Shown here piece by piece: positions 13,345-32,700 of a stretch of DNA of 64,000 nucleotides. Source of the DNA: a phage. The position numbers and the translations under genes were made by a program. Position 1 is the stretch's first letter. The number at the start of each line of letters is the position of its first letter. Where the stretch lies: the sequence record NC_111505.1. The stretch is one strand, 5' to 3'. Below the pieces are notes generated by a model. The model did not search any database. It was given only the letters and a program-made list of their open reading frames with translations, and was not told where the DNA came from.

Positions 13345-13683
13345 CTACTGAAGGTCTTCAGAGTCAAGCTCAAAAAGAATCAAACTGTGCATGTTTGCAG
13401 AGAGCTCAACACACTCCGCAACGACAAGGGTCTGATAGTAAGGTTCAGCACCCTCGATGTCTTCGTTAAAATCCACAACAAGGTAGTCACCTTTGTTAAA
13501 GGTGTATTTGTCAGATGTAAACGCAAACCCTGCCCAGTCCCCTACAGGGTCTTTATCGATCACCTTTGTTAGCAGGAGGTCTTTTTCACGAGATCTTTTA
13601 GTAAAATCGTGAATCACAACAGCCTTCTCTTCAGGATTTGGATTTCCACACACGTAGTTAACTATATTTCTCCACAAACTCAT
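13345..13683 (-). CDS. hypothetical protein
   Basis: 112-aa ORF overlapping the helicase stop by 4 nt. Confidence 0.45.
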   Translation of the reverse strand: MSLWRNIVNYVCGNPNPEEKAVVIHDFTKRSREKDLLLTKVIDKDPVGDWAGFAFTSDKYTFNKGDYLVVDFNEDIEGAEPYYQTLVVAECVELSANMHSLILFELDSEDLQ

Positions 13684-15050
13684 ACGTCCCCCTTTTCTGC
13701 TCTAGTTTCAAAATCTTTCCTGACTTTCTCGTCTAAGCCAGGGAAAGTTGTATTATAAAACTCTACGACTCGCGGGTCAACAATAATATCCACCTCTCTT
13801 AATGGACGCAACAAGTTTATTCCCTGTATCGTCTTAACCCGACTCAAGGCAACATACGTCATTCCTGGAGAGAAAGCTCCGTTCTTTCCAAGGTCCAGGT
13901 TGTAACAATCTAGCGTAAGTCCTTGACTTTTATGCGATGTTACTGCGTACCCCGATTTCAAAGGGAGTTGCTCATAAGACCCGATCACAACCCTCTCTAT
14001 GAACTTCTCCATCTTCCTTTCGGCAATATTGTACCTCTGGGAAGGTTTGTACTCGTTATTCTCCCACAATCTCGGCTCAATTTCAACCTGTGTCCCGTCT
14101 TCTAGCTCAACTACCACGGATTTAGTCTTGAATTTTACCACTGTGGCACGTGTCCCGTTGACATAATACGGAACTTTGTGAGTAGGGTCAACATCGTTTG
14201 AGGTTATCATAACCTTCATCCCTATCTTCAGCCTCATTTCCTGCTCCACAGGCAGTGTGGAAGGGAACTTACCCTTCATTTTACCAATGTAGGTCTTCTC
14301 TGGGGCCTGGATGGCATCATAGAAACGTCTGTTCACCTCCTCTGCTTGCTTATTGGTGGCGCAGATAGTCAAGGCATCTGTTGGGACACCGCCATGATAG
14401 CAACGAGTGTTAAGCTCTGCTACAACCTCTTTTATGCGACGACCTTCACGAACACAGTTCAACATTGTGGCGAAGCGAACAGATTCCTGACGGAACTGGT
14501 CTACTAAGGCTATATTGTGAAGATTAAGATCCTCCCAAGATTCTGTATAGCAACACAAATCTGTGTGGTAGAAGTTGAAGTAGGCTTCTTTCTCCATGGA
14601 AGAGACAACTGGAGGTGCTTGGTAGAAATCTCCAAACAATAACACCTGAATGCCTCCGAAAGGTTTGTCATTTTTCCGAAGAAAGCGGAGTTTTCTGTCC
14701 ATCTCTATGAACTTGTCAGCACGGATCATAGAGATTTCATCGATAATTAGGATGGTAAATGCCTTGCTTTTCAGAGGCTTTGCTGTTTTTGCCCTTATTG
14801 CTGTCCAGTCTGACTCCATGCTCACACCTGCGGCAAGATCGAAAGTTCGGTGTGCTGTTGCTCCATTAACGTTTAAAGCGGCTACCCCTGTCGGGGCAAC
14901 CGTTATGCAAGAGTCTCCATACATGGACTGGATCATGTTGATAAGATATGTCTTCCCGGTTCCACCAGGTCCACTTACGAAGACATTCTCACCACTCATG
15001 ATTGCAACAAGGGCAGCATCTGTGCCTACATCGTACTGCCCTTTCTCCAT
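13680..15050 (-). CDS. SF1 DNA helicase, Dda/RecD/Pif1-like
   Basis: Walker A VSGPGGTGKTY; ITVAPTGVAA; Walker B IIDEISMI; C-terminal TYVALSRVK motif. Confidence 0.75.
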   Translation of the reverse strand: MEKGQYDVGTDAALVAIMSGENVFVSGPGGTGKTYLINMIQSMYGDSCITVAPTGVAALNVNGATAHRTFDLAAGVSMESDWTAIRAKTAKPLKSKAFTILIIDEISMIRADKFIEMDRKLRFLRKNDKPFGGIQVLLFGDFYQAPPVVSSMEKEAYFNFYHTDLCCYTESWEDLNLHNIALVDQFRQESVRFATMLNCVREGRRIKEVVAELNTRCYHGGVPTDALTICATNKQAEEVNRRFYDAIQAPEKTYIGKMKGKFPSTLPVEQEMRLKIGMKVMITSNDVDPTHKVPYYVNGTRATVVKFKTKSVVVELEDGTQVEIEPRLWENNEYKPSQRYNIAERKMEKFIERVVIGSYEQLPLKSGYAVTSHKSQGLTLDCYNLDLGKNGAFSPGMTYVALSRVKTIQGINLLRPLREVDIIVDPRVVEFYNTTFPGLDEKVRKDFETRAEKGDV

Positions 15051-16255
15051 TACGCCTCCTCGTAGATAATGTCGATAGTGTTGCCGTCGCGGTCAACCAC
15101 GTACTCGATTGGGTCCCCATCTTTGCGCGATTCTGGAGCTACTACGATTTCGTAGCGGCATGCACGGCACTTAGCGCTGTTGTGTTGGTAAGGTACACTG
15201 ACTACATCAGCAGGGTCAACCATAACCGTCATCACAGTGCCGTAGCTCTTTGCATACTCTTTGCTGGCACAGTGCAGGCCATAAGAGCATGCAGCTTCCG
15301 GATCATCCTCTACAAAGTTACGAGGCATGGATACAAAAGCGCCCTGGTATTGTGGGACTTTACCACTGTGCCAATCCACCCACTTGTCGCCGTTAAACTG
15401 AACCCCTTTGTAGCAAATGATTCGACCATCTTCTGCAATCTGAATGTCATTTGCCTGCATAAAGTCGTAGAGCATGTTTACAGATTTTGCAGACGGATTG
15501 CGTAACAGGCGAACTAGGAATTTCACATAGCGGTCATCCAGTGTTCCATCTGCATAATCTTTCTCAATTTTCTTTGCAATAGTAGATCGCATCTCCACAC
15601 CGTAGTAGTAGAGCTTACCATCTTTCATGATCAGGTTGTCTGCCAGTGTAGTGAACTCATTCTTGCGTTCCAGCCAGACAAGGATTTCACCAATTGCCTC
15701 GTCATATTCCTGAACAGAGATATGGTCGAAGACTTTCTGGTAAACTTCCTCACTTTCGCTGCGGCGAATTTCAAAAATACCTTCGTTGCAAGTGATCTGC
15801 AAGAGTTCCCCACAAATAACTACCAGAGGCTCGATGCTTCGAGTCTGTTGCTGAGACACACTGCTCACCACCTCCAGAACCGGATCTTTGACTTCTACCG
15901 AAGGCTCTTCTGACTTGATTGCTACTCCAGTGAACCCCACACCGTGAACAACGCACAGCGGGTATACCACTCCCCAGCGTTTAAAGGACTCCTCCCCTAA
16001 ATCCAAGATCATGGCGTACTTGCCGTTGTCTTCCAGCCCATATCGGAATAAACGGGCCTCTTCGCGGGTTTCAAAATCCTCACGGGTGTAACAAACGCTG
16101 TCACGGTCAGGGTCGAACACCTCTGGGGCACCTACTGCCAGTGTCCAGGTTGTGTTACCTTTCTCAATGGCGCATGTGAAACCCTTCTTCTCAAGTTCTG
16201 CACGGCGGTCTCGTGCTTCTTTACGGGTTTTGAAATGTTCGTAGATGAAAATCAT
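15050..16255 (-). CDS. hypothetical protein (401 aa)
   Basis: no motif recognised; sits between the helicase and the GHKL ATPase. Confidence 0.5.
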   Translation of the reverse strand: MIFIYEHFKTRKEARDRRAELEKKGFTCAIEKGNTTWTLAVGAPEVFDPDRDSVCYTREDFETREEARLFRYGLEDNGKYAMILDLGEESFKRWGVVYPLCVVHGVGFTGVAIKSEEPSVEVKDPVLEVVSSVSQQQTRSIEPLVVICGELLQITCNEGIFEIRRSESEEVYQKVFDHISVQEYDEAIGEILVWLERKNEFTTLADNLIMKDGKLYYYGVEMRSTIAKKIEKDYADGTLDDRYVKFLVRLLRNPSAKSVNMLYDFMQANDIQIAEDGRIICYKGVQFNGDKWVDWHSGKVPQYQGAFVSMPRNFVEDDPEAACSYGLHCASKEYAKSYGTVMTVMVDPADVVSVPYQHNSAKCRACRYEIVVAPESRKDGDPIEYVVDRDGNTIDIIYEEA

Positions 16256-16265
16256 CTTGGTCTCC

Positions 16266-18248
16266 TTATTTGATGTTATTCTTTGTATCGATCAGTTCAC
16301 GGTATTCAATCATAGCAGGGGTGTCCCAATATTTCAAGCCTACATGCTTTAAAAGTGGATATTTCTTTTCCAATCTCGCAATATAGGCCTTCCCGCACTT
16401 AACTCGGTTGGCGATTAAGACTTTGGCACGATGATTCAGCTCACCGTACTTCCACGTGGTGCTACCTTCCCACTTGTGGAAATGTGGCCGATAATTTCCA
16501 AAATCCTGCATGGGTATAATTTTACCTAACTGTCTGTACAGGCTGTCATATGAAGTTTCATTTGCTGCGCGAGTCAGTAAGAATTTCCAAGCATCCTCTT
16601 TCAACAAATGTTCCACATTCTTCTCTGTAACATATTGGCAATCAGGATCAGTCCAAAGCAGACGAGATTCCGACACCAGGTACAGATCTTCCCCTTCAGG
16701 AATCTGGAGTGCCGCACGCACACGGTCATAATCTTGCTGGTAGATGTTACTCATCTGCCCTAGCCAACAACTTCCGCGTTGGATATCCCCCTCATACGGT
16801 ATGCAGTGCTTAATCTTCCTGAACTCTGCCTTAGTAATACGCTCACGCCGGAAGTAACCATCCTTCTCAAGTTTTTTAACCCAATAACCGGGCTCATAAC
16901 GAGTTTTTGTTTCACCTTTCTTCACAGGTCGGCGAGGAAGCTCTGATAACAATTTGACCGTATCTGCAAAGAACGGATGGTGTGCCACTTCTTTAAACTC
17001 TTTTACCAGATCCGTGTTCCGGCAATAGAAAACGTTGCGTCCGGTGATCTCGCTTAAGTAGTTACACTTATTTCGGTTATATTTACCGTCTCCGTCGTTA
17101 AATACTAGATAGACTCCTCGTAAGAATTCTACCTTTCCGTAACAAGCGTATCCTATGCGGCTTTTATTTAAGCCGCCTGCGAAGATCTCACAGTCCCCTA
17201 AATTCCCTAGTCCTGTTTCTTCCCACCGGTCATACATAAAATTCTTACCGAAGATGTGCCCGAACACTCCACTGTTCTTCATCATCTCGCGTGCTTCTGA
17301 GGATGTTTTTGCTGTCTCCAGTTCCGCAACAACTTCTGCTCCACGAAGACGGATACCTTCTTTGACAAAAGCTTCCAAACGCTCTTGGAATCCACCATCA
17401 TCGTGACCTTCTATGGTCCATTCACGTCCTGGGTTAATATTGCAGTCTCCGATAGGGATCTCTACACAAATTGCAGGATAATCTGTTAGTGTTTCCAGGA
17501 ACTTAGAACGGTAAGGTTGGTGACCCATTACCACACGACTCTCGTCAGAGCTGGTATAGCCCTTCAGGATGGTCATCTTCCAACCATCTTTTTCATAATA
17601 ATACTGCGCCTCTACTTTGTCTCCCTCCAGCATCTTGCTCGTCATCGGATCGGTGACAGTGAACGGAAATTTTGCATAGCGTAGACATGATGCAATAGCG
17701 GTGCGATATTTCAGAACATGCTCTTTCTTAACATGAAACTGAACTTTTACTCCATTGTGCTCTTCAGTCTTCCGCTCACGGATCTTGGTGACATTTGGGA
17801 TACCCTGGTCCAAGAACAATAGGTATGTGCTTTCCACACCATTGTGCACACTGATTACATCGAAAGTGTCCACCATGCTGAACGGGGCCTTTGAACCAAC
17901 ACCTTTATTGCCTACCAGATCGTTGCTGTTGCGCTTGGTTGACTCGCCGAGGTTCATGAAAGTGTTGCGGACCATCTCTTCTGACATACCGAGGCCAACG
18001 TCCTGCACAAAGAAGTATGGTTCAAGATCTGTAGGGGAGTGAATGATGATCGGAACATCACCACGTCCAGACTCAACATGAGAGTCCACAGCATTGAAGA
18101 TTGGTTCACGGCAGCTTGCCAGCACCTTATCTTCATAAATCCCTTTAATGATTAACCCAAAAGTTTCTTTGTTCAGAGAAATTGATCCCCTTGTTACCTC
18201 CAAATTCCCAGTTAGCACTGCTTTAGTTTCATTACTGTTTACAATCAT
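16266..18248 (-). CDS. GHKL-superfamily ATPase domain protein (MORC/Hsp90-like N-terminus) with uncharacterised C-terminal region
   Basis: N-box EPIFNAVDS; G1 box VQDVGLGM; G2 box GNKGVGSKAPF, in canonical order; about 450 aa of C-terminal sequence unassigned. Confidence 0.6.
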   Translation of the reverse strand: MIVNSNETKAVLTGNLEVTRGSISLNKETFGLIIKGIYEDKVLASCREPIFNAVDSHVESGRGDVPIIIHSPTDLEPYFFVQDVGLGMSEEMVRNTFMNLGESTKRNSNDLVGNKGVGSKAPFSMVDTFDVISVHNGVESTYLLFLDQGIPNVTKIRERKTEEHNGVKVQFHVKKEHVLKYRTAIASCLRYAKFPFTVTDPMTSKMLEGDKVEAQYYYEKDGWKMTILKGYTSSDESRVVMGHQPYRSKFLETLTDYPAICVEIPIGDCNINPGREWTIEGHDDGGFQERLEAFVKEGIRLRGAEVVAELETAKTSSEAREMMKNSGVFGHIFGKNFMYDRWEETGLGNLGDCEIFAGGLNKSRIGYACYGKVEFLRGVYLVFNDGDGKYNRNKCNYLSEITGRNVFYCRNTDLVKEFKEVAHHPFFADTVKLLSELPRRPVKKGETKTRYEPGYWVKKLEKDGYFRRERITKAEFRKIKHCIPYEGDIQRGSCWLGQMSNIYQQDYDRVRAALQIPEGEDLYLVSESRLLWTDPDCQYVTEKNVEHLLKEDAWKFLLTRAANETSYDSLYRQLGKIIPMQDFGNYRPHFHKWEGSTTWKYGELNHRAKVLIANRVKCGKAYIARLEKKYPLLKHVGLKYWDTPAMIEYRELIDTKNNIK

Positions 18249-18745
18249 TTATTGCGCTCCTTGTAGTAGATATGACTCCCGAATTGAGCTGTCCTCTGCA
18301 TCTTTTTTGCCCATTTCGGTCGTACTTTTGTTGTATGATAGTGTGTTGCTCCACCTGTTATATCCATAGCCATGTATGCAACATGGTTGTTATTATAGAC
18401 CTTTAGAAGCATCTTTGCAAGACTTTTAGCGTGATCCCATGAATCTTTTTCTGTCACCTTAAAAGTTTTGCCGTGGTTTGTCCACGAAAACTGGTTAGGT
18501 TGGTAGACAATCTTTCTTATAGTGTCTGGGTACTTAGGGTGAGATTTCCTGTTTAGTGTGGCAAACCCAGATGCCAACATACCCATCGTGCCATCTCCTC
18601 TGGCTTCCCTGTAGATATTGCATGCCAGAATGTTCTCCTTAGTATCCGATGGCTTGCAGGTGTGATATACTTTTTGTTTTGGTGCTGCAACAACAGGCAG
18701 CGATAAAAATGCGCTCAAAATAATAGCAAAGATTTTAATTTTCAC
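18245..18745 (-). CDS. secreted cell wall hydrolase, SleB/CwlJ-like; candidate endolysin
   Basis: N-terminal signal-like MKIKIFAIILSAFLSLPVVAAP; NIYREARGDG...GFATLNRK...YPDTIRKIVYQPNQFSW matches the Hydrolase_2 signature. Confidence 0.6.
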   Translation of the reverse strand: MKIKIFAIILSAFLSLPVVAAPKQKVYHTCKPSDTKENILACNIYREARGDGTMGMLASGFATLNRKSHPKYPDTIRKIVYQPNQFSWTNHGKTFKVTEKDSWDHAKSLAKMLLKVYNNNHVAYMAMDITGGATHYHTTKVRPKWAKKMQRTAQFGSHIYYKERNK

Positions 18746-18763: not shown

Positions 18764-18782
18764 ATCCCCGCCGAAGCGGGGG
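18764..18782 (-). terminator. rho-independent terminator
   Basis: CCCCGC-CGAA-GCGGGG hairpin, followed on minus strand by AUUUUCUAUUU. Confidence 0.5.
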
Positions 18783-19184: not shown

Positions 19185-20369
19185 TCAAGCTTTAGCTAAA
19201 ATGGCGCTAAACTCTTCACCAAACTCTTTTACAATCTTCATCAGGTTTGGGTATGCTTTGATCAGCTGAGCAACGATCTTGTCCCGGCCTTTACCAATAA
19301 GTAAGGCATTTCCTAGGGCGTTGGGTTTCATCATCGCCATAAAGACTGAGAATACAAAGTCTCGGTTCTCATCCTTGAAATTTTCCCAAAGGAAATCAAG
19401 GAAGTTTGCCACGCAGCTAACAAGATCTTCGTCTGAGACACTTGCATTTTCCATCATATTCCGAATAGCAATACAACCTTCAGACCCAAGAATCCACAAA
19501 ATATCTGGCTGCTTAGGACCTACATACTCTTTGCAACCCCCTGCCATAATCCGACCGATTTCTGGCAAGTTTCGTTTCTTGGTGTGGTAGGTCCAGATTT
19601 CTACCGCTGCAGTGTGACCAATAGCACCTTGCAGAAGAACACGAGCCATAGCGTCAGAAATAATACCGCTGTCAAAATCGTGCAGGATGTCAGATGCAGC
19701 AACCCAAGATCGCGGTGTAGCAAAAGATGGACAATTAATCTCAGCCATAGCCTCATAATTATCGATAGCTGATGGAACTCTTTTCAGATATCCAATTACA
19801 GAGGAATGCACACCATTAAGGAATGCGTAGTCCTCAATAAATACCTCTGCACTGCTTGTAACTTCTACAATGATAAAGCGGTTAGCCAGAGGGGCTTCGA
19901 GCGCTGAAAGAACAGCACCATCCGTAGCACGGTTACCTGCAGCTACAAAAACAGAGCCCTTAGGAAATGCATAGGTGCCGCACTTGTGGTCGAGCATAAT
20001 TTGCATTGCAACCTTCTGCAGGTAGTTATCTGCATGAGTAAGCTCATCCAGAAAGATAATTCCGCTCCAGTCCGAGTCTGCAGGCCAAAATTCTGGAATT
20101 GCAAACACTGTGCGTGTAGTTCCATCTGCCTCTACAGGGATAGGTAGTCCAGACAAGTCAGCAGGATCTTTATCTGACAGCCGCACGTCAACCAGGTTGT
20201 CATCTCGCTCACCGAACATATTATCAGCAATCTGCTTCATCACCTGGCTCTTCCCCACACCCATCGGTCCTAAAATCAGGACAGATCGGTTATGACGCTG
20301 GGCAAATTGAATAATAGCTGGCAACTCGCGGACAGTGATTTGACCACTTTCGAATACGTTTCTTGACAT
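19185..20369 (-). CDS. MoxR-like AAA+ ATPase (CbbQ/CobS-like)
   Basis: Walker A GPMGVGKSQ; Walker B IIFLDELTHA; 394 aa. Confidence 0.7.
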   Translation of the reverse strand: MSRNVFESGQITVRELPAIIQFAQRHNRSVLILGPMGVGKSQVMKQIADNMFGERDDNLVDVRLSDKDPADLSGLPIPVEADGTTRTVFAIPEFWPADSDWSGIIFLDELTHADNYLQKVAMQIMLDHKCGTYAFPKGSVFVAAGNRATDGAVLSALEAPLANRFIIVEVTSSAEVFIEDYAFLNGVHSSVIGYLKRVPSAIDNYEAMAEINCPSFATPRSWVAASDILHDFDSGIISDAMARVLLQGAIGHTAAVEIWTYHTKKRNLPEIGRIMAGGCKEYVGPKQPDILWILGSEGCIAIRNMMENASVSDEDLVSCVANFLDFLWENFKDENRDFVFSVFMAMMKPNALGNALLIGKGRDKIVAQLIKAYPNLMKIVKEFGEEFSAILAKA

Positions 20370-21969: not shown

Positions 21970-22865
21970 ATCTCCGCGTAAATTAAACTGGAATCAGTAT
22001 ACTTCTTTAACGGGTAAATATCCTGTCCATAGATGCCGTCATTAAACACCTCATCTACCCAAAGGCTACACTTATATCCCATCATCTCTAAAACACCCAT
22101 CTCTTCTTCGGTAAACTTATCACCGCTCTTGCAAGATGTCAACACCTCATTCTGTACTCTTGCTACCTCGAAGCGGTTATTGGCAATATCACTATTGGCA
22201 ATCAAATACTCACCTAAAGGGTGTGCAGCATTAAAGATGCACAGTGGACGGTTGACGTAATAGTCCCCCGGTGTATAAAAATTGTTGAGATCCTTCACCA
22301 GAACATTCTTATCAGTCACTTCATTTATAACATCATGCATATCACACATCTTTATATGTTTGAGGATTCCATCCCCCATCACAAAATAAAAACTTGCTGA
22401 GACACTCTCGGCATAGATCTTACTAGATCCATTGTAGTTGTATTTTACGCGAATGCTTACAGGGGTTTTGCCTGTCGCGTTAGCCATCATCCAAAGGAAC
22501 GGAAGTTCAAACTTCTCCTCTGAGGAAACAAAAGGTGAAGTTGCCAGAGATCGGAAACCACCAGAGAAGTTGAAAGTTACAGAGCCGCTCCGGCGATATG
22601 ATACCGCATATTCTACTTTTATATCGACATAGCCGTTGGAGTAAGTGTGGCCTCCATTATCCAGATATGTCCACTTATCAGATCCGGATACCAACCTACG
22701 CTCAATCACCTTCATTACTACAGGAATTAGCGGGTTGGTACAAACCGATTTTGAAGTAGCTTTATCATCCAAAGCCTCGTAAATTGCAGAAAGGATATCG
22801 CCTGCTGAGAGATTGGTTGTGATATCTTGTTTCCACCGAGTGCTAAAGCTGTTAAGATTTGCCAT
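21966..22865 (-). CDS. hypothetical protein
   Basis: start at internal ATG (MANLNSF) with AGGAG upstream; first gene of the minus-strand early block. Confidence 0.5.
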   Translation of the reverse strand: MANLNSFSTRWKQDITTNLSAGDILSAIYEALDDKATSKSVCTNPLIPVVMKVIERRLVSGSDKWTYLDNGGHTYSNGYVDIKVEYAVSYRRSGSVTFNFSGGFRSLATSPFVSSEEKFELPFLWMMANATGKTPVSIRVKYNYNGSSKIYAESVSASFYFVMGDGILKHIKMCDMHDVINEVTDKNVLVKDLNNFYTPGDYYVNRPLCIFNAAHPLGEYLIANSDIANNRFEVARVQNEVLTSCKSGDKFTEEEMGVLEMMGYKCSLWVDEVFNDGIYGQDIYPLKKYTDSSLIYAEI

Positions 22866-22905
22866 GATTAAGTGCTCCTGTGTTCGTTTTCTTTCGAATG
22901 GGTGC

Positions 22906-22934
22906 ACTATATCGTGGATTTAGAGTAAAGTCAA
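22906..22934 (-). promoter_or_regulatory. sigma70-like promoter (TTGACT-17-TATAGT)
   Basis: minus-strand -35 and -10 with 17-nt spacer, about 35 nt upstream of ATG 22865, in the divergent intergenic region. Confidence 0.5.
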
Positions 22935-22947
22935 CACGTTTTTGAGG

Positions 22948-22976
22948 TTGACATCTGTTGAGGCACTTGATAAGAT
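22948..22976 (+). promoter_or_regulatory. sigma70-like promoter (TTGACA-17-TAAGAT)
   Basis: perfect -35 hexamer, 17-nt spacer, 4/6 -10; drives the plus-strand island. Confidence 0.5.
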
Positions 22977-23007
22977 TTCTTCACCTACAGAGCACAAGAG
23001 ACAACTC

Positions 23008-23997
23008 ATGAATCTTGAAAAATATTATACACCAGAAGAGTTAGAGCGCCTGCTCAAAAAATACAGACGCAAACAAAATAATGCACGGAAACGAGATATA
23101 GAGTTCAACCTGTCATGGGAAGAATACCTCCTATTTGGTAAAAAACTTTTAGGAGAGGGGGTGTGCGACTATACCCTTATACCTTTCGACATGCACACAG
23201 ATGAAAACGGACTGGGAAATCCTTTCTACCCCTCCCTAGAGCGGATAGATGATGAAGGTCCTTATGCTGTTGATAATTGTTGTGTGGTGGGATTGAGATG
23301 CAACTCTCTAAAGGACTGTCTGGTAGATAAAAAGACCGCAGTCTTGATTAAAGACAAAACTGATCGAAAAATTGTCCAGCAGATGATGCTCCACCTGAGC
23401 GAAGAGCGTATGGAGAAATTGAAAGGTGATTACACTTTTGAAGATTTCATCTTGCAATATGGAACGGAAGAGGATAAACTGGCACTCTTTGACGAAGAAT
23501 GGGAGGAAGATATGTCACCAATGCAGGATTTTAAAAACTTCATGGCTAATCGTGGAGCCAACAAGCACATTTCTGACATCGTAAATGAGCCTGTAACAGA
23601 AGAGATTGAAGAAATGATGCAACAGGATCACGAAGAGGAAAAAGAGCCTCAAAAGGTCGAAGAAGAGCTTACAGAAGAGGTTCCTGCACTGCCTGACGAT
23701 GTTGAGATTGCTAAAGCCTATACTTTCTATTGCCAGACGTTCTACGATGCAGGCATGAAAGTCGATCTGTCATTCAGCCAATTTAAGAGCACGTACATTC
23801 GAAAATGCTGTGCTTTAACTGGCGAGCGTTTCGGGGCCGGACTTAAACCGTTATTAGTGACCGACTGGAATAAAGGTTTCACCAAAGGTAACTTTATGGT
23901 AGTATCTCCGATCATGGAGAAGGCTATGACAGACCTTATGAAGACCACTCGCATGACAATGACCGAGTTGGCTGGTATTTTCAAGCACGTTAAATAA
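23008..23997 (+). CDS. hypothetical protein with internal repeat module and long acidic tract
   Basis: start at ATG 23008 (track start is TTG); two related modules (RKRDIEFNLSWEEY...C.YT and VDLSFSQFKSTYIRKCCALTGERF) flank a D/E-rich stretch; first gene after the promoter. Confidence 0.5.
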   Translation: MNLEKYYTPEELERLLKKYRRKQNNARKRDIEFNLSWEEYLLFGKKLLGEGVCDYTLIPFDMHTDENGLGNPFYPSLERIDDEGPYAVDNCCVVGLRCNSLKDCLVDKKTAVLIKDKTDRKIVQQMMLHLSEERMEKLKGDYTFEDFILQYGTEEDKLALFDEEWEEDMSPMQDFKNFMANRGANKHISDIVNEPVTEEIEEMMQQDHEEEKEPQKVEEELTEEVPALPDDVEIAKAYTFYCQTFYDAGMKVDLSFSQFKSTYIRKCCALTGERFGAGLKPLLVTDWNKGFTKGNFMVVSPIMEKAMTDLMKTTRMTMTELAGIFKHVK

Positions 23998-24001
23998 TGA
24001 C

Positions 24002-24018
24002 AGGGGCCAATGGCCCCT
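24002..24018 (+). promoter_or_regulatory. intergenic hairpin (AGGGGCC-AAT-GGCCCCT)
   Basis: perfect 7-bp inverted repeat right after the stop at 23997; the same stem is reused in the 29.75-kb terminator. Confidence 0.35.
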
Positions 24019-24030
24019 TCTGGAGTTTTA

Positions 24031-25491
24031 ATGGATAGCAGAAGTTCAGAAATCATTGCCGCACAAAAAGATGACGCCTTGCGAATGCTGCAGGCAGCAC
24101 GTATGTATCTTCTTGAAAAACTGCCGTTTTATGGCACACTGTTGTCAGGGTTGCAGTTCGTAGAAAACCACACATGGTGCTCCACCATGGCAACAGATCA
24201 TAAACGCATTTATTACAGTCCTGAGTTCGTTATGGGATTGGCTGATGAGCGCAAAACCATTCTTGAGGCATCTTTAACTGACAAGCAGTTTGAGATGGCT
24301 GAGGTTTTCTATTCCCCCAAATCTGTGAAAGAGGTGGCATTTCTTCTATCACATGAGGTGGGGCATATTATCTGTGATCATCTGGTCCGTGGCAAAAGCT
24401 TTGAGCCGGAACTGTTCAATATTGCCTGTGATCATGTTATCAACACAGGTCTTGTGGTTGACTTTAGCAAGCCCCCTTGTGTTTTCTTCCCGAAGGGGAA
24501 AAGCACTACGTTTGTAAAAGGTAAGCCTTTTGGCTTTTTAGCTAGTTGCTACTGTGACATGAGGTTCCATGGATGGATTGCTGAGAACGTCTATGCTGTT
24601 CTTGATAAGCAAAGAGATCAGAATAGCGGTAAAAGTAAGAACGGTAAAGGCGAGAACTCTCAAGGAGATAAACGACAAACCGATGATCACATGAGTGGTA
24701 ACGGTGGCACTAGTGATGATCTTGGAAAGGCTATGGGGTATGATCAGCCACAGCCAGTGATCAGTCAATCTGATAAAGATCAAGCCATGCAGGACTCTGG
24801 TGACATGTTGGAAGCAGCAATGCAGGCTTCCGGAGGTAGTTGCCCTGAGGCTGTGCGCGAGTTTGTCAAAAACAGAGGTAAGCCTGTAATCAATTATATA
24901 GACATCATTAAGCAACGTATGTTGTCCAAACGAAAGGCTGAACTAACCTACAGAAAACCAGGTCGCCGATCTGGGTCTTTGACCAGCACAATGCGAAAAG
25001 TTGGAGCTATAAACAAGAATCAGCACGTTGTTGTTCCTGGCCGTAATCCGGAAAACACTATAGATATTGTGGTGGCTTTAGACGTTTCTGGGTCGATCTC
25101 GCAAAGAACTTTAAAGAAAATGTTCAATGAGATCACTGGGTTGTGCAATCTGTATAAAGAGTTCAAGGTTACGATGTTCTGTTGGTCAACTGAGGTTGGA
25201 GAGGTTAAAGTATACACTCGCGGGAACATCGACGAGATGATCAACTATGAGGTCCACTCAACATGGGGAACAACAGCCGCTTGCGTGTTCGAGTATCTGG
25301 ACGCTAACATACCAAATGCAAAAGATGTCATCGTCCTGACCGACCTATACTTTGAGCATAACTTTGAACAAAAGGCTGTTGACAACAAGTGGAAAAAGTA
25401 CGATACTTTATGGGTTCTCACCGAAGGGTATAATAAAAATTATATCCCTAGCTTTGGGAAAACTGTAGAATTGATCGAGTACGCTAAATAA
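24031..25491 (+). CDS. VWA-domain protein with N-terminal HExxH metallopeptidase-like domain
   Basis: HEVGHIICDH zinc-binding-like motif; MIDAS-like VVALDVSGSIS; start set at ATG 24031 (GGAG upstream) after the hairpin. Confidence 0.65.
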   Translation: MDSRSSEIIAAQKDDALRMLQAARMYLLEKLPFYGTLLSGLQFVENHTWCSTMATDHKRIYYSPEFVMGLADERKTILEASLTDKQFEMAEVFYSPKSVKEVAFLLSHEVGHIICDHLVRGKSFEPELFNIACDHVINTGLVVDFSKPPCVFFPKGKSTTFVKGKPFGFLASCYCDMRFHGWIAENVYAVLDKQRDQNSGKSKNGKGENSQGDKRQTDDHMSGNGGTSDDLGKAMGYDQPQPVISQSDKDQAMQDSGDMLEAAMQASGGSCPEAVREFVKNRGKPVINYIDIIKQRMLSKRKAELTYRKPGRRSGSLTSTMRKVGAINKNQHVVVPGRNPENTIDIVVALDVSGSISQRTLKKMFNEITGLCNLYKEFKVTMFCWSTEVGEVKVYTRGNIDEMINYEVHSTWGTTAACVFEYLDANIPNAKDVIVLTDLYFEHNFEQKAVDNKWKKYDTLWVLTEGYNKNYIPSFGKTVELIEYAK

Positions 25492-25497
25492 GAGAGG

Positions 25498-25767
25498 ATG
25501 TTATTTATGGCAACAGAAGTAGTAATTAAAGCTGAACGCCCAGTTAAAAAAGCTATCAACACGTTTCCTGTAGGAACTATTGTGAGCATGATTACAGAGT
25601 CAGGTCGTGTATCTACACTGCTAATCGTGAAATCTGCATGCTCATCTTGTGTGTGGGCATATGATCTTGACGAGAAAGAACTGAAAGATTTTGTTGGAGA
25701 GCTGAAAGCAACAGAACTTGACGCTCGTATCGAAGTATTTGGTGAAACTATGGAGGAAGAGCAATGA
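25498..25767 (+). CDS. hypothetical protein
   Basis: 89-aa ORF. Confidence 0.45.
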   Translation: MLFMATEVVIKAERPVKKAINTFPVGTIVSMITESGRVSTLLIVKSACSSCVWAYDLDEKELKDFVGELKATELDARIEVFGETMEEEQ

Positions 25768-26027
25768 CCACAAAAATCACCATTGCAGAACCGAAAGCTA
25801 ACACGCAGCCTATCGAAAAGTTTAAATGCGGTGAGGTGGTAACATTCACACCTGACAATGAAGATGCCAAGATTTTCGCCATGGTTACAGCCGAGTGGAT
25901 GTGTGACAACACCACACAGGTTCTGCGTTTTGACACCTATCTTACAGATGAAATCAGGAACGACAAGATCGTGACTGGTGTAGATACTGAGATTGTTTTC
26001 TACAAGAGCTTCGTGGAGGGTTTCTAA
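25764..26027 (+). CDS. hypothetical protein
   Basis: 87-aa ORF, ATGA overlap with upstream gene. Confidence 0.45.
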   Translation: MTTKITIAEPKANTQPIEKFKCGEVVTFTPDNEDAKIFAMVTAEWMCDNTTQVLRFDTYLTDEIRNDKIVTGVDTEIVFYKSFVEGF

Positions 26028-26028
26028 T

Positions 26029-26265
26029 ATGGCAAGAATTCGTAAATTGTTCAACAATCAAACTGTGAAAGATTTTGAACCCGGAGAGATTCTGTATGTT
26101 CATGATGCAGATGACGAAGGAGAAGATCTTGTTATGCTACTAGGGCATGCTGCTGAGGACGGATGCATCCAGGCTGTTTTTCTTGAAACAGCTATGGTGC
26201 ACTGGATAGAGCTGGACCTGAAAGCACGAAAACCTAAAGCAGAGATCCTGATTTACGAAGATTAA
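26029..26265 (+). CDS. hypothetical protein
   Basis: start at internal ATG (MARIRKLF) with GGAGGG upstream. Confidence 0.45.
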   Translation: MARIRKLFNNQTVKDFEPGEILYVHDADDEGEDLVMLLGHAAEDGCIQAVFLETAMVHWIELDLKARKPKAEILIYED

Positions 26266-26281
26266 CAAAAAGGAGAGAGCA

Positions 26282-26731
26282 GTGTTGAGCAAACGTGAAT
26301 GCGACAGCATTAGCCTAAATTCTTATAAGAAACAATGGTTTGGGGTAGAAGTTTGCCGACTACGGCTCGGCTCCTACCTGAACTTCGTTTATTACGAGAG
26401 TGACAGTCGTATCGTTTCTTATGAAGTGTTTTACACTAAGAACACCTTCGAGCTGCGACGTAAGGTGGATGGCGGGAGAGCTACCACTCAGAATAACTGG
26501 GAAACTATTCTGCCTCCAGATGTTATAGGAAGCCCCCTGAATGTATCTGAAGATGAAAATCTTATGGTTCATGCTATGATGGGACTTGACAGCTTAGAGC
26601 TGGCGATCTATGATATGTCCATCGAAGCGGTTAAGCTGGACTACATCGAAAACACCTTAGAGGAAGGTATCAAGAAGTTTCTCGGTGAGAAATTGAAAGC
26701 CCACTTTCATAAGGAGCTATACCTGTTATGA
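26282..26731 (+). CDS. hypothetical protein
   Basis: 149-aa ORF. Confidence 0.45.
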   Translation: MLSKRECDSISLNSYKKQWFGVEVCRLRLGSYLNFVYYESDSRIVSYEVFYTKNTFELRRKVDGGRATTQNNWETILPPDVIGSPLNVSEDENLMVHAMMGLDSLELAIYDMSIEAVKLDYIENTLEEGIKKFLGEKLKAHFHKELYLL

Positions 26732-26973
26732 AGACCCGTAAAGAACGTAACAAGATTTTACCTTGTGCTCTCGAACACATGATGAAGTGCAGATCTATCT
26801 GGCACTCTGCCAAGGAGGGGCAGCATGTGGTTGTAGTTAGTGATAATGCCAACCCATTCGGTGATTATGTCACCATGATGACTCCATATATCCGCGACGG
26901 TGTTGTGGAAGTGGTTCCTTATAGCGGTCTGCATGAGAGGCATTTTGAAAGCACTTTGTTAGTGGAGCTATAA
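26728..26973 (+). CDS. hypothetical protein
   Basis: 81-aa ORF overlapping the upstream stop. Confidence 0.45.
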   Translation: MKTRKERNKILPCALEHMMKCRSIWHSAKEGQHVVVVSDNANPFGDYVTMMTPYIRDGVVEVVPYSGLHERHFESTLLVEL

Positions 26974-26975
26974 TC

Positions 26976-27542
26976 ATGGCGGTCAATGTGGCTTACAACA
27001 CAGGAAAGCTTGACAGAGATATTGGGTGTCTTGTCCTTTCAGATACAGAAGAGTATTGGGGTTATGGGCTGCTGTCAGACCCACACCCTAGCAACCTTGT
27101 ATCAACAGTGCTATATCGCTACGACCCTGTACCAACGGTGCACGACAAAGATATTCACGACCTTAGGGTAAAGTGTCTGGAAGATCTTCTGAACAATGGC
27201 TGCAACGATCTGCAGGTAGCCAAGGAGAAGCTTACAAACATCCACAAGGAGGAAGTGATGAGCACCCTCAGTAAGAGGTCAGTGCACAAAAAGATGATGC
27301 TGAACTTTGCAATGGGTATCTACATGGACGGATATAAAGGTGGGGATCCGATCCTCAAACTTCGCTGCCCAACACTGTGGGAAAGAGTGGTTGACAGTAA
27401 GGACGGTACTGCTCTTCTTGAGCTCCACACTTCGGGTTGGATATGGAGGTATGTGGACGGATACCCTCTGTGGGCATGTGGGGCTGGGGAGTTTGTTGAC
27501 AGACCTAGCGCGGTGGTGGACTTGCTATTGCAATTTGAATAA
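26976..27542 (+). CDS. hypothetical protein
   Basis: 188-aa ORF. Confidence 0.5.
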   Translation: MAVNVAYNTGKLDRDIGCLVLSDTEEYWGYGLLSDPHPSNLVSTVLYRYDPVPTVHDKDIHDLRVKCLEDLLNNGCNDLQVAKEKLTNIHKEEVMSTLSKRSVHKKMMLNFAMGIYMDGYKGGDPILKLRCPTLWERVVDSKDGTALLELHTSGWIWRYVDGYPLWACGAGEFVDRPSAVVDLLLQFE

Positions 27543-27597
27543 AGAGTTAGTTATAAGGTATTCATGCACCTATCAACAATAAACAGGAGAGACTGAG

Positions 27598-27873
27598 ATG
27601 ACGAAAGAAGAGGCCGACGTATTAGACTTTGCATCAGAAGCCACACAGGAGGCTTTGGTGTTAGCGTGGAAAATGAACCAGCGTGCTGCAGAATGCAACC
27701 GCCGCATCAATGAGATTCTTGGCATGCCTATGTATGATTTCACCATGCATGCCGGAGAGATTCCTGAGCTTACTGCTGAAATGGCGGATCTTGACAACAA
27801 GATCGATATTATCCTGAAGACAGCGGAAACAACTCACCAAACCGCCCGTAAATTTATCAACGAGAAGGTGTGA
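27598..27873 (+). CDS. hypothetical protein
   Basis: 91-aa ORF. Confidence 0.45.
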   Translation: MTKEEADVLDFASEATQEALVLAWKMNQRAAECNRRINEILGMPMYDFTMHAGEIPELTAEMADLDNKIDIILKTAETTHQTARKFINEKV

Positions 27874-28349
27874 ATATGGACTACAGCTACTGCGGGGAAG
27901 AAGTACCTTTTAACTACAGCAATCTTACCACGAGCAATCCATATGAGACTCGCCACGGCACACACATCATTGCTATTGACTTTGATGGAACGTTTAATGC
28001 AAGCCCTTTCATCTTCTCCCGCCTTATCAAGGACCTGAAGAAGGAGGGGTGGACAGTCTATCTTGTGACTTTTCGGTTCATCACTCAAGACAACGTGGAC
28101 ATCGAATACTGGCGCAAGGAGTTAGATGTTGGAGTGTTTTATACTGGAGGTGTTCAGAAGGCCGCTTATCTGGCGCAGTTTGATATCTACCCAGACATCT
28201 GGGTTGATGATTCTCCAGCTTGCATTCCAGCCAAGAATCAGTTAGAGTTTGCAATGAAGGAAATTGAGTATAAGTCTGACGCTAAGCGTAACGGATGGCC
28301 CTTTATTATTGAAGATTACCCAGATCCTGAACCGGAGAAAGAGCCATGA
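27870..28349 (+). CDS. HAD-superfamily phosphatase-like protein
   Basis: motif I IIAIDFDGTF and distal IWVDDSP. Confidence 0.5.
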   Translation: MNMDYSYCGEEVPFNYSNLTTSNPYETRHGTHIIAIDFDGTFNASPFIFSRLIKDLKKEGWTVYLVTFRFITQDNVDIEYWRKELDVGVFYTGGVQKAAYLAQFDIYPDIWVDDSPACIPAKNQLEFAMKEIEYKSDAKRNGWPFIIEDYPDPEPEKEP

Positions 28350-28516
28350 AACGAAGATACCATTACTTGATGTGGAAGTTATACCATGGTGCTGCTAAAG
28401 CTTATCGCGCCGTGTTTGGTAATGACAATCACTACATTATGTTACACCTTACCGCCATTAAGCATCACAATGAGTGGATTCGTGCAATCGTAATAGGTGA
28501 CAAAGACTTTAAGTAA
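28346..28516 (+). CDS. candidate small protein (about 56 aa), not in ORF track
   Basis: ATG overlaps the upstream stop (ATGA); MKRRYHYLMWKLYHG...; coordinates approximate. Confidence 0.35.
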   Translation: MKRRYHYLMWKLYHGAAKAYRAVFGNDNHYIMLHLTAIKHHNEWIRAIVIGDKDFK

Positions 28517-28567
28517 GGTATGCCTCAAAAACGTAATAGTGTGGATTTCTAAATGGAGACTGATTAA

Positions 28568-28948
28568 ATGTGCAAGTGTAAATCCTATAATTGGAAAGTT
28601 AAAGGTGCCAAGCATCCAAATGTTATCGTTGATGTGCCTAAAAAGCTCCGTGACTGCAAAAAACGTGTGTGCCTTGATAAGTGCATGGCTAAGCCTATCA
28701 TGAGTCTATGGGCGGCAGGATTGAAAACTATAAACTGCTGCTGTGGTCATAACAAAGATGCTCCAAGCATCATTATCCCAGAGGATGCAGACCCTAAAGC
28801 TTATGCCAAAATACTGACCCGCTACCCCAGCACCTTTCTGATCGGAAAATGGTGTCACGATGAACTTCAATGGTGGATAGCATACGGCAGCATAGGTACT
28901 GCTGTTGGCTTTCCAGCTTTGTCAGAGCGCTACGTCAAAGTGTCATAA
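28568..28948 (+). CDS. hypothetical Cys-rich protein
   Basis: 126 aa; several Cys clusters (CKCK, INCCCGH) suggest metal binding. Confidence 0.45.
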   Translation: MCKCKSYNWKVKGAKHPNVIVDVPKKLRDCKKRVCLDKCMAKPIMSLWAAGLKTINCCCGHNKDAPSIIIPEDADPKAYAKILTRYPSTFLIGKWCHDELQWWIAYGSIGTAVGFPALSERYVKVS

Positions 28949-29052
28949 TCGATTTTAAGGCCTCAAACGAGGCCTGTGCCTTCATAAACTTCCTACCTAT
29001 GTGCGATTACCCTTCTGAATAAAATACCCTCTCAAATTGCTTAAAATTAAGC

Positions 29053-29081
29053 TTGACACTAACACCAGATTTATATATGAT
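29053..29081 (+). promoter_or_regulatory. sigma70-like promoter (TTGACA-17-TATGAT)
   Basis: consensus -35, 17-nt spacer, 5/6 -10, about 30 nt upstream of GAGGAG and ATG 29112. Confidence 0.5.
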
Positions 29082-29111
29082 TATCTCACCAACCCAACAG
29101 AGGAGATTGTC

Positions 29112-29519
29112 ATGGATAATCTTGCAAGTGTAAACGTAGAAATTGTTAAACTAAAGTTCTTGGGCTTTCGAGACCCTAATTCTCTAACAGCTATACTGAT
29201 GGATACCCACTTCACACCGGGGAAAGAGTACACTGCCTTCCGTTATACTCACGGAGATCACGAATCGGCCTATAGTGTGAATACAAACCTCGGTGAGGGA
29301 TATTTCATCAGAGATATCACAGATCACTTGTGGGGTATGTGGGAATTGGTGGGAGAAGAGAATAAATCCCTTCCCAAAGAGATTTGGGTGCACACCTTCC
29401 ACACAGGGAAGTTTGGTGGAACGGAGCATAAATCTATCCACTATGATGAAGGAAGTGCCATCAAGCAACAAGCTGTGCTTGGCGGATCTGTAGAAAAATT
29501 TGTTAAATGCGAGGACTGA
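29112..29519 (+). CDS. hypothetical protein
   Basis: start at internal ATG (MDNLASV) downstream of the promoter; track ORF begins upstream of it. Confidence 0.45.
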   Translation: MDNLASVNVEIVKLKFLGFRDPNSLTAILMDTHFTPGKEYTAFRYTHGDHESAYSVNTNLGEGYFIRDITDHLWGMWELVGEENKSLPKEIWVHTFHTGKFGGTEHKSIHYDEGSAIKQQAVLGGSVEKFVKCED

Positions 29520-29522
29520 GAA

Positions 29523-29723
29523 ATGGCTGATTTTTGTAAAGATTGCTCTGAAGAGTTGTTTGGCTTTGACTGCAAAGATTTGGAAGGTCTGATCACTGAG
29601 GATCAGTGGAAGGAAGGCTATGCAGCACCTGTTATTTGTGAAGGTTGTGGCTATACCTATGTTGACCATAAAGGTAAGCGCGTCAAGCCGTCTGAAGATG
29701 GGGCATGTTGGGAGTATTACTAA
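29523..29723 (+). CDS. small zinc-ribbon-like protein
   Basis: 66 aa; CKDC...CEGCGY Cys pairs. Confidence 0.45.
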   Translation: MADFCKDCSEELFGFDCKDLEGLITEDQWKEGYAAPVICEGCGYTYVDHKGKRVKPSEDGACWEYY

Positions 29724-29732
29724 CTATAAAAA

Positions 29733-29760
29733 GAAAGGGGCCGTTTGGCCCCTTTTTTAT
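29733..29760. terminator. bidirectional rho-independent terminator between convergent blocks
   Basis: AGGGGCC-GTTT-GGCCCCT flanked by A-run upstream and T-run downstream. Confidence 0.65.
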
Positions 29761-29771
29761 TTACCCCCTTG

Positions 29772-32700
29772 TTAACGAGAAAAGGTTGCGTAGGCTTCTA
29801 GACGATACTGCTGGTCACCAGGGAACATAACACCTATAGAGGCTGTCCCTAGAATCCTGCCTTCCTTTCCAGACTCCATTCTGAACCCTACCCATCCTGA
29901 ACTCCTTGCAGCATCGATGTTGTCTCTATACCCGAAAGTGGCAAGATCGTCAACACCAGCCCCAAACAGCAACTGAAGCTGACTTCTCGGAAGCCCTATA
30001 ATTTCAGGAATATACGCACCAAAGTACACCATCTGCCCTACCTTAGGACCGCTGCCGTACTCCATCGGCTTGCTTGTAGAGAAAGTCTTCATACCAGAAG
30101 TCCCTGCCGGATTAGGATATGCCCCGTTTGTTGCTGTACCTATCCACATTCTCCACTGTGGTGCCATCTGTTTGACAGTAAAAGATGTTGAAGACGTTTT
30201 GCGCCCTGCATCATCTGTAACTACAAACTTTATAGTGACATTCCCAGTAGCTTTAAATGTTACCAGCCCTGTGGTAGCATCCACTGTTGCAATGTTGGTA
30301 TTACTACTTTCCCAAGTCTTTCTGATTCCTGGCACATTGGAAGGGGTAATAGAAGGTTCCTGCATCTGCAGTTTACCACCTACAATCCCTATCCCGTTTC
30401 CTGGATTATACAACGCACCAACCTCGTCTACAATGTTACCTGCCTTGAGGCTGTACTTTTTAGAGAAGTTGTAAGTGCCGTTATATGTGTGTGTCCCTGA
30501 GAAGGTTACATCTGCTTTTCCGTAAGAGATGCAAACCAAAGCATACTTCCTGTCAGGCAACGGTGCCCCAGTTTCTGGGTGAGTTTTACCCACCTGAAAC
30601 ACACTCGGGTCAGTGGAGTCTTGGCTATCACTAACTGAGTTTGGGCCACCCATCAGTTGTGACAAGCAATTCCTTACCCATGTCCAGTTATTATCGCTGG
30701 AGAAGTCCACAGTTAAATCAAACACAACCCACTCATTTGGCTTCCACACAGGTGTTGCAATGGACTTGCCTACACCGCCTCCTTGGAGTGTTGCCGACTG
30801 TTCAGTGATCAGGGCCGCGTAGGCCAGAGTTCCTAAACTCAGAGTTTGGCTTGCTGTCCTCACTACCTTAGAATCAGCATCTGTGAAGTTGTTGATGATC
30901 TGGAATGTGCCATAAGTGTTTTTACAGGTAATTCTGGCGTTCAGCGTGTCAATCTTCCTCACATCTGCCATAGCAGTGTTAGACACAGAGAAGTCAGAAG
31001 CTTTAGCTGAGTTTGCCGCAACAGCAGGATCAACGTTAAGAGTTGCGTTGAACTGACAAGCTGGGGTAACCAGCAGCTTGTTATCACCTATTTGCTTCCA
31101 TGAAACACTTTGAACAGGGAGATTCCATTTAATACCTGAGAAAACTTTAGCAACCCTTGGCCCCAGAGCTCCAGTCCTGGTGTCTTTACAGCACATGGAC
31201 ATGGTGATCGTTGACGGAGTGGCCTGACCAAACAATTGCTGTGCTTTTGCAGAGGACATGGTGTAGAAATTGTCCTTAACAAACTCATCAGCCGCCAATG
31301 ATCCGTCAGATCTCCACCATTGCACCTGGTACCCTGTCTTATCCCAGCCACCGACCTGCTTCAGGTCCTCCCAGGAGATTTCCAGATCCCCAGTGGTAGG
31401 GTTGATTGCAGCAGTTCCTGGTGTTCCAGAGGACCATAATGGGATATCGAACCATGCTGGTTTAACAGATTGTACTGCGTTCGGTCCTATTGCAGCAGCA
31501 AGTTGCTGACCCATCAACACACGAGAATCTTTTACCAAGCCCCATTCAATCATGGACCCAGAGTAGCCTTCTTTCTTATAGGCCGAAGATCCGTTCAAAT
31601 GGATAAGCCTGCTGCAGTCGAAACCATACGCCCCGCCACCGTTAGGATCTGCAAAGTTAGTTATGATTCTATCCCTTATATTTTTCCATGCCCTGCCTCC
31701 AATCTCGTAGTCATGGTCATAACATCTCTGCAGCGTTGTCCAGCAAATGATTGCCATTCTTCTGCCACCAGTAAACCCGAAAGCGCCGTCATTCAACTCT
31801 TTCCACAGATAGCAGTTAGTTGCCCACATAGCTCTGTGGATATTGAACCAGTTTATAGACTTAGCAGAATTGTCCCACTGAGTTCCCGGTAATTCAGGCC
31901 ACACTGCATTAACCAACATGTCTTCTGTTCCTGCATCAACTAAGAACCCTCTCACCTTTTTACCCATACCTGCCCTGTCTTTAGCAATCCAATTGCCAAA
32001 CAGTCTCAGTTTTGGACCATAAACGACATCCTCTGGGTGCTCAAAAGAAACATACTTTAAGTAGATTGTTGGGTCACCGTAGGTGCCATCACAAACACTT
32101 TTGTGCATGTTTTCGCCAAGATCTAGACGAAGCCCTGTCACCACTTTAGACGTGTCGGTGAATTTGTCTGTTAAATCAAATTCATACCACCACCATCCAC
32201 CACCAAGCATAAATTTCTTGCATCGAGCATTGTCTGTATCAGATATTCTCTTATCCCCTGCAAAAGGTGAATCAGCAAACTGATAATGCAGAGCAGTCTC
32301 GAATAAATGTGTTGAGGTTCCGTTTTCTGCAAGAACTTGCTTACCTATTAAGTCGCACTTAATGATCATCACAACACGTTTGTACCCGTTTGTTACTGGA
32401 ACTTGCATAGACATGGATGTCCCATCCATGTTTGATCTCAGCACGGTCATGACGATATAAGGGTCAACGGCATTGCCCAGAGTTTCAGGACCAGGGATTA
32501 TCTTGTACTTCTTAACCTGCCCCATAAACCTGTCACTGGCGTAAGTTGCAGCCTCGAAGCAAGATCCTCCATTAGGTAGTTCGCCAGGACCCCAGAAAAA
32601 TGCGCCATAACAGTTATAAAACCACTTGTTAGGATCGTATTTGTTCTTGAAGGTCTGAACCTCGTTAGCCTGTTTTGTCAAGAAAACCTGAGTATCTGTG

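Follow-up and report, generated by a model that had tools for sequence, protein, structure and literature searches.

The rIIA–rIIB locus of a Vequintavirus: predicted domain organization of an Hsp90-like RIIA and its RIIB partner, and a probable role against RexAB-type abortive infection

The rII locus of bacteriophage T4, formed by the contiguous genes rIIA and rIIB, has been described in the BASEL paper as "long-known yet poorly understood" (PMC8594841). Roughly seven decades after the work of Benzer, the biochemical mechanism of its products is still lacking, a question that concerns the whole family and not one particular phage. Functional data come from CRISPRi-ART experiments, in which rIIA or rIIB was knocked down in phages T4, MM02, EdH4, SUSP1, and N4: plating was reduced on E. 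coli expressing lambda RexAB and was unaffected on Rex-free cells (Adler et al., Nat Microbiol 2025, PMC11879866). Insertions in T4 rIIA and rIIB were also found to be depleted on RexAB hosts (bioRxiv 10.1101/2025.11.20.689424). RexA binds DNA and works together with RexB, a membrane protein (PMC11077077). Here we analyze two neighboring genes within a stretch of 64,000 nucleotides (nt) of phage DNA (sequence record NC_111505.1; the window from here on), which code for proteins of 660 and 401 amino acids (aa). A preliminary description, made from the sequence alone, had presented them as a GHKL ATPase with an unassigned C-terminal half and an unassigned protein, forming a co-translated module with an adjacent Dda-like helicase. 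The pair almost certainly represents the versions of T4 rIIA and rIIB carried by this phage, and the locus is very probably a counter-defence module, dispensable on naive hosts and needed on hosts with RexAB-type abortive infection.

The three open reading frames (ORFs) of that description (660, 401, and 456 aa) were all confirmed in place on the minus strand. The rIIA gene occupies positions 16266..18248 and rIIB positions 15050..16255, stop codons included, both on the minus strand. The 660-aa protein matched the PHROGs family phrog_612 ("RIIA") from end to end (aa 1-658 versus profile positions 1-724 of 725, E-value 7.6e-125). BLASTP against T4 RIIA (T4 reference proteins were taken from NC_000866) gave 28% identity over aa 1-198 (E 5e-22). 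Using the family alignment, hhalign carried this homology to aa 1-313 against T4 RIIA alone (probability 99.9%, E 6.9e-35), and a profile of five T4-type RIIA members extended it to aa 1-327 (probability 100%, E 6.6e-64). The 401-aa protein matched phrog_609 ("RIIB"; E 1.8e-61) and was 37% identical to T4 RIIB over 204 aa by BLASTP (E 5e-39). Its relatives carry a precomputed match to PF26926, and in close relatives the gene is annotated as rIIB. NCBIfam gave no family-level match for either protein, and a reciprocal search placed neither of them in another family. The pair is thus assigned by PHROGs and by comparison with T4, and the earlier view of it as unassigned did not hold: it is already known, and not new.

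The rII locus matched 119-120 phage records at 90-99% DNA identity, nearly all of them Vequintavirus (rV5-like) phages of E. coli, and the closest was vB_EcoM_YN3 (99.2% identity). The window phage is a Vequintavirus. Most of the matching records name the genes rIIA, rIIB, helicase, and SleB/cell-wall hydrolase, and the record of rV5 itself (DQ832317 / NC_011041) opens with rIIA. Phages rV5, FV3, Murica/EdH4, and the BASEL Bas48-57 group share the same genes in the same order (SleB-rIIA-rIIB-helicase) within that range of identity, without any substantial difference from the window, which represents one more isolate or variant. The supposed unassigned GHKL module is therefore a textbook rII locus, annotated in more than 100 genomes of the genus and with its function tested in one. 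Sixteen GenBank records titled "Campylobacter phage" (host C. jejuni; MG065635-MG065690) were also about 91% identical in DNA to window positions 13680-18248; these records are probably mislabelled or contaminant assemblies.

The phage with the tested function is EdH4, which is Vequintavirus murica. Compared with the window, Murica rIIA is 90.7% identical in DNA, and the N-terminus of its RIIB is 95% identical in protein. With the knock-down phenotypes of five phages, this makes an anti-Rex-type role of the window module likely. Several observations weigh against this assignment. It was in EdH4, a congener, and not in the window phage that the RexAB phenotype was measured. BASEL-type surveys found wild-type phages to be generally Rex-insensitive and did not state the reason (PMC8594841). 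On its own, T6 RIIB is toxic and sets off a bacterial defence of the gasdermin/CARD type (PMC10312443), and RIIB may for this reason have an activity of its own. Moreover, T4 RIIB has been classed by Iyer et al. as a specific transcription factor (PMC7824862). Finally, our literature searches returned no biochemical activity, solved structure, or biochemical mechanism for any RIIA or RIIB, for a module that is itself termed "poorly understood".

The assignment of RIIA to the GHKL ATPases, proposed earlier from its N-box, G1, and G2 motifs, was confirmed. Pfam HATPase_c_3 matched aa 50-147 above the gathering score (E 1.1e-8), and the GHKL (Bergerat-fold) ATP-binding domain covers approximately aa 27-190 (17679..18170, minus strand). 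Within it, the N-box (R47-E48..N52..D55), the G1 motif (D83-x-G85-x-G87), the ATP-lid (S103-T104-K105), and the G2 motif (G113-x-x-G116-x-G118-S-K, of the GxxGxG type) were invariant in the 24 members of the RIIA family that were aligned; all nucleotide-binding motifs of the protein are intact. This domain is followed by a second, transducer-like domain and a helix (approximately aa 191-327; 17268..17678, minus strand) containing an invariant R275-E276 pair. An AlphaFold2 model of RIIA, calculated from the alignment of 24 sequences, was confident throughout, with a mean predicted local distance difference test (pLDDT) score of 84.3. Structural and profile alignments of RIIA to GHL proteins spanned 250-314 residues, corresponding to the Bergerat fold plus a second domain of the transducer type. 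This two-domain arrangement is common to all GHL clamp ATPases, and aa 1-327 of RIIA accordingly constitute a clamp ATPase of the GHL class. The GHKL domain, the second domain, and the [SG]-R-E motif around R275 have their homologues in T4 RIIA (NP_049616) over aa 1-327. Transmembrane segments that could account for the term "membrane-associated" were sought in RIIA and none was found.

Single-protein sequence searches of the PDB with RIIA or RIIB returned nothing significant, and it was the RIIA family profile alone that reached the Hsp90 family. The best 60 matches listed for a hidden Markov model (HMM) of the RIIA family against PDB sequences all belonged to Hsp90 proteins, the top one being E. 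coli HtpG (E 1.2e-10, profile positions 27-320). In this alignment, the invariant RIIA motif G-D-x-D-[IV]-N-P-[SG]-R-E, which includes R275-E276, fell on the HtpG loop L-N-V-S-R-E-I-L-Q. In Hsp90, the catalytic arginine that touches the gamma-phosphate of ATP lies in this loop. The nearest cellular relatives of RIIA, as judged by sequence profiles, are therefore Hsp90/HtpG, and Hsp90 proteins (E. coli HtpG, TRAP1, Grp94) also gave the best structural matches outside phages. The correspondence is limited to about 300 residues: RIIA matches the Bergerat N-domain and the beginning of the middle domain, with the catalytic-loop arginine aligned, whereas the alignments end at about aa 314-320 of RIIA, and neither the remaining part of the Hsp90 middle domain nor the C-terminal dimerisation domain gave a match. 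Compared with MORC, SMCHD1, MutL, and GyrB-ParE, RIIA has no CW, S5-linked DNA-binding, endonuclease, or TOPRIM module, and its similarity to them is weaker than that to Hsp90.

The remainder of RIIA (approximately aa 328-660; 16269..17267, minus strand) is a lineage-variable region composed of an alpha/beta part followed by a helical bundle (aa 542-657). Window RIIA is shorter than its T4 counterpart (660 versus 725 aa), and for these C-terminal 330 residues or so hhalign detected no sequence-profile homology to T4-type RIIA. Neither Pfam nor solved structures gave a match to aa 328-660. The region was nevertheless modelled with confidence (pLDDT mostly 82-93), and a Foldseek search of predicted viral structures aligned the RIIA model over its full length with RIIA of the T4-like phages KVP40, 44RR2.8t, pf16, and others (725-800 columns, E ~1e-33, template modelling score 0.44-0.56). 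Since the predicted structures align from end to end, the overall architecture of RIIA seems to be shared with other phage RIIA proteins, its sequence having drifted.

RIIB consists of three parts according to its AlphaFold2 model (mean pLDDT 73): duplicated N-terminal units, a disordered linker, and a body well predicted over aa 144-400. The conserved body (aa 142-401; 15053..15832, minus strand) is homologous to aa 107-304 of T4 RIIB (NP_049889); the shared C-terminal stretch of about 200 aa includes the NPS-K-V/LYDF and CS-GLH motifs. Window RIIB is longer than T4 RIIB (401 versus 312 aa), and the N-terminal region of approximately 100 aa of the T4 protein is replaced in it by two tandem beta-alpha-beta-beta units (aa 3-42 and 53-103; 15947..16255, minus strand) and the linker (aa 104-141; 15833..15946, minus strand), which is variable in length, with indel-rich alignment columns and low confidence (pLDDT 25-29). 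BLASTP gave no alignment to aa 1-106 of T4 RIIB, and the T4-type N-terminal region, which by eye reads as helix-turn-helix-like and, being variable, does not define the family, was not found. Each unit bears the motif F-x-[ST]-R-x-[ED]-A-R...W-x-V, which is retained even in relatives with an overall identity of about 36%, and hhalign aligned unit 1 with unit 2 (probability 93.5%, E 2.3e-7); from this sequence evidence, the two units represent a true duplication. A match of the N-terminus to Pfam SPOR (PF05036) was borderline (23.4 bits versus a cut-off of 21). Conservation within RIIB is lowest at the N-terminus, which differs between lineages. The search for transmembrane segments gave a single hydrophobic stretch in RIIB (aa 95-113), borderline and non-conserved. 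A metagenomic protein of 498 aa was also found in which TPR repeats are joined to a part 100% identical to window RIIB, with 55% of the query covered; this protein may be a genuine fusion or else a chimera created during assembly.

The rIIA and rIIB genes were adjacent in every lineage inspected (T4, Schizotequatrovirus, Tulanevirus, Marfavirus, Pseudotevenvirus, Suspvirus, and Seunavirus), spanning Straboviridae, Ounavirinae, and Vequintavirinae, with rIIA directly upstream of rIIB in the window as in T4. They are separated by 10 nt (16256..16265, minus strand): the rIIA stop codon TAA is followed by a spacer including a GGAG Shine-Dalgarno sequence, as read from the sequence, and then by the ATG of rIIB, without overlap. 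In addition, both proteins matched the same 1055-position phrog_609 profile at opposite ends (RIIA at positions 29-186 and RIIB at 806-1043), and phage RB43 encodes a 1049-aa "RIIA-RIIB" protein (Q56C47). Spacer, adjacency, shared profile, and RB43 fusion all speak for a functional partnership, and show that rIIA and rIIB are tightly linked, translationally close, and in some phages fused into one protein. The phrog_609 family ("RIIB lysis inhibitor") appears to be built on natural RIIA-RIIB fusions such as that of RB43, and annotation pipelines may consequently call RIIA N-termini "RIIB".

The helicase does not share this conservation. It is encoded at 13680..15050 on the minus strand (456 aa), and its matches to PF05970 (E 1.8e-33) and phrog_325 (E 1.1e-110) identify it as a Pif1/Dda-like helicase of superfamily 1B (SF1B), in agreement with the first reading of the sequence. 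However, it follows rIIB only within Vequintavirinae; this adjacency is absent from Ounavirinae, where a hypothetical protein and a polynucleotide kinase follow rIIb, and from T4 and other Straboviridae. In the window, the rII neighbors are an endolysin-type hydrolase and the helicase, whereas in T4 they are topoisomerase genes. Synteny therefore rejects the helicase as a member of a conserved three-gene cassette outside Vequintavirinae, and it is best seen as a neighbor of the rII pair and the first gene of an adjoining replication block that also contains a methyltransferase and a primase-helicase.

On this basis, a mechanism can be tentatively proposed, to which we give somewhat less than even chances. 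RIIA would be an ATP-driven dimerising clamp, like Hsp90, MutL, MORC, and GyrB, although the structure models of RIIA and RIIB are of monomers. Binding of ATP would close the N-domains, with R275 sensing the gamma-phosphate, and the variable C-terminal region of RIIA would form one complex with RIIB. By masking or remodelling either the RexAB proteins or the signal of infection that switches on RexA/RexB, this complex would prevent depolarisation of the membrane. Differences in the variable parts, namely the RIIA C-terminus and the RIIB N-terminus, would adjust the set of host or prophage systems against which the module acts. A further and rather unlikely extension is that Vequintavirinae swapped the T4-type N-terminus of RIIB for the duplicated RNP/SPOR-like module and carry their own RIIA C-terminus, and that these parts could set the specificity of the clamp. 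If true, the module would recognise a trigger or target other than that of T4 and might neutralise defences besides RexAB. What this analysis adds to the known locus is a model-based domain description (a predicted Hsp90-like two-domain clamp in RIIA, the N-terminal duplication in RIIB, and modules that vary between lineages), and it offers E48, N52, and R275 as mutational targets for work on the rII mechanism; none of these features is peculiar to the window.

Other explanations of the locus were considered. In one of them, the pair would be a divergent phage topoisomerase of type II, made up of a GyrB/gp39-like ATPase subunit (the GHKL protein) and a 401-aa cleavage subunit, acting in replication with the adjacent helicase. 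TOPRIM, GyrA-like, and MutL-endonuclease domains were sought and none was found, confirming what had been noted by eye; lacking a TOPRIM or GyrA-like cleavage partner, the pair is therefore not a topoisomerase. Likewise, no homology to topoisomerase II subunits appeared, the two proteins matching RIIA and RIIB instead, and this explanation is effectively refuted. The helicase enters again in the proposal that RIIA, RIIB, and the helicase form a co-translated module for membrane-anchored phage DNA replication or recombination, with Rex resistance as a side effect. The rIIB stop codon does overlap the helicase start (TAATG), on the minus strand the genes are not separated by any terminator-like site, and the distant Seunavirus 4MG (RIIA 40% identical) has the same gene order, rIIA-rIIB-helicase. 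In addition, because RexA binds DNA (PMC11077077), a structure related to DNA may be what triggers Rex. Nevertheless, the restricted occurrence of the helicase adjacency described above, the dispensability of rIIA and rIIB without Rex in five phages, EdH4 among them, and the fact that short gene overlaps are general in the minus-strand block make this proposal improbable.

A role in gene expression has to be weighed as well, in which RIIB would act mainly in regulation, as a transcription factor or by binding nucleic acid, with RIIA as its ATP-dependent, Hsp90-like chaperone or remodeller, counter-defence being an indirect effect. The classification of T4 RIIB by Iyer et al. (PMC7824862), the helix-turn-helix-like look of its N-terminus, and the Hsp90-like nature of RIIA are in line with such a role, as is the RNP/SPOR-like tandem of window RIIB, a type of fold that often binds nucleic acid or glycan. 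But the N-terminus, being the least conserved part of the protein and exchanged from one lineage to another, is a poor fit for a conserved DNA target, and the conserved body has no recognisable DNA-binding fold, so that we consider this role no less improbable than the replication module. The counter-defence assignment of the rIIA-rIIB pair is accordingly preferred.

Upstream of rIIA, a SleB-like cell-wall hydrolase of the endolysin type is encoded at 18245..18745 on the minus strand (PF07486, E 2.1e-19); its N-terminus is strongly hydrophobic (KD19 2.29) and resembles a signal or SAR sequence. Its gene overlaps rIIA by 4 nt (ATGA), and rIIB overlaps the helicase gene by 1 nt; these two junctions are the true overlaps, which corrects the earlier reading, since rIIA and rIIB do not overlap. 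Just upstream of the hydrolase gene lies a terminator-like GC-rich hairpin, CCCCGCTTCGGCGGGG, followed by a T-run (18766-18781, minus strand). Given the ATGA overlap and the position of this hairpin, hydrolase, rIIA, rIIB, and helicase may constitute one transcription unit; short overlaps between adjacent genes are the rule throughout the minus-strand block. Two genes upstream of the hydrolase, a 394-aa AAA+/MoxR-like ATPase is encoded (19185-20369, minus strand; phrog_1297, E 4.3e-110, a family labelled "ATPase" and nothing beyond; Pfam AAA matches were weak). In phage BP9 (PP488543.1, 122141-124994), the match to the locus begins only at query base 346, and the annotation under the match includes an "IS2 insertion element repressor InsA"; this suggests that IS2 has inserted at the 3' end of rIIB or at the helicase junction (window ~15050-15395). 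Finally, in the interval from about 22 to 30 kb of the window (22000-30000), GC skew and AT skew reverse sign, coinciding with the switch to plus-strand ORFs from position 22942, a divergent transcription block.

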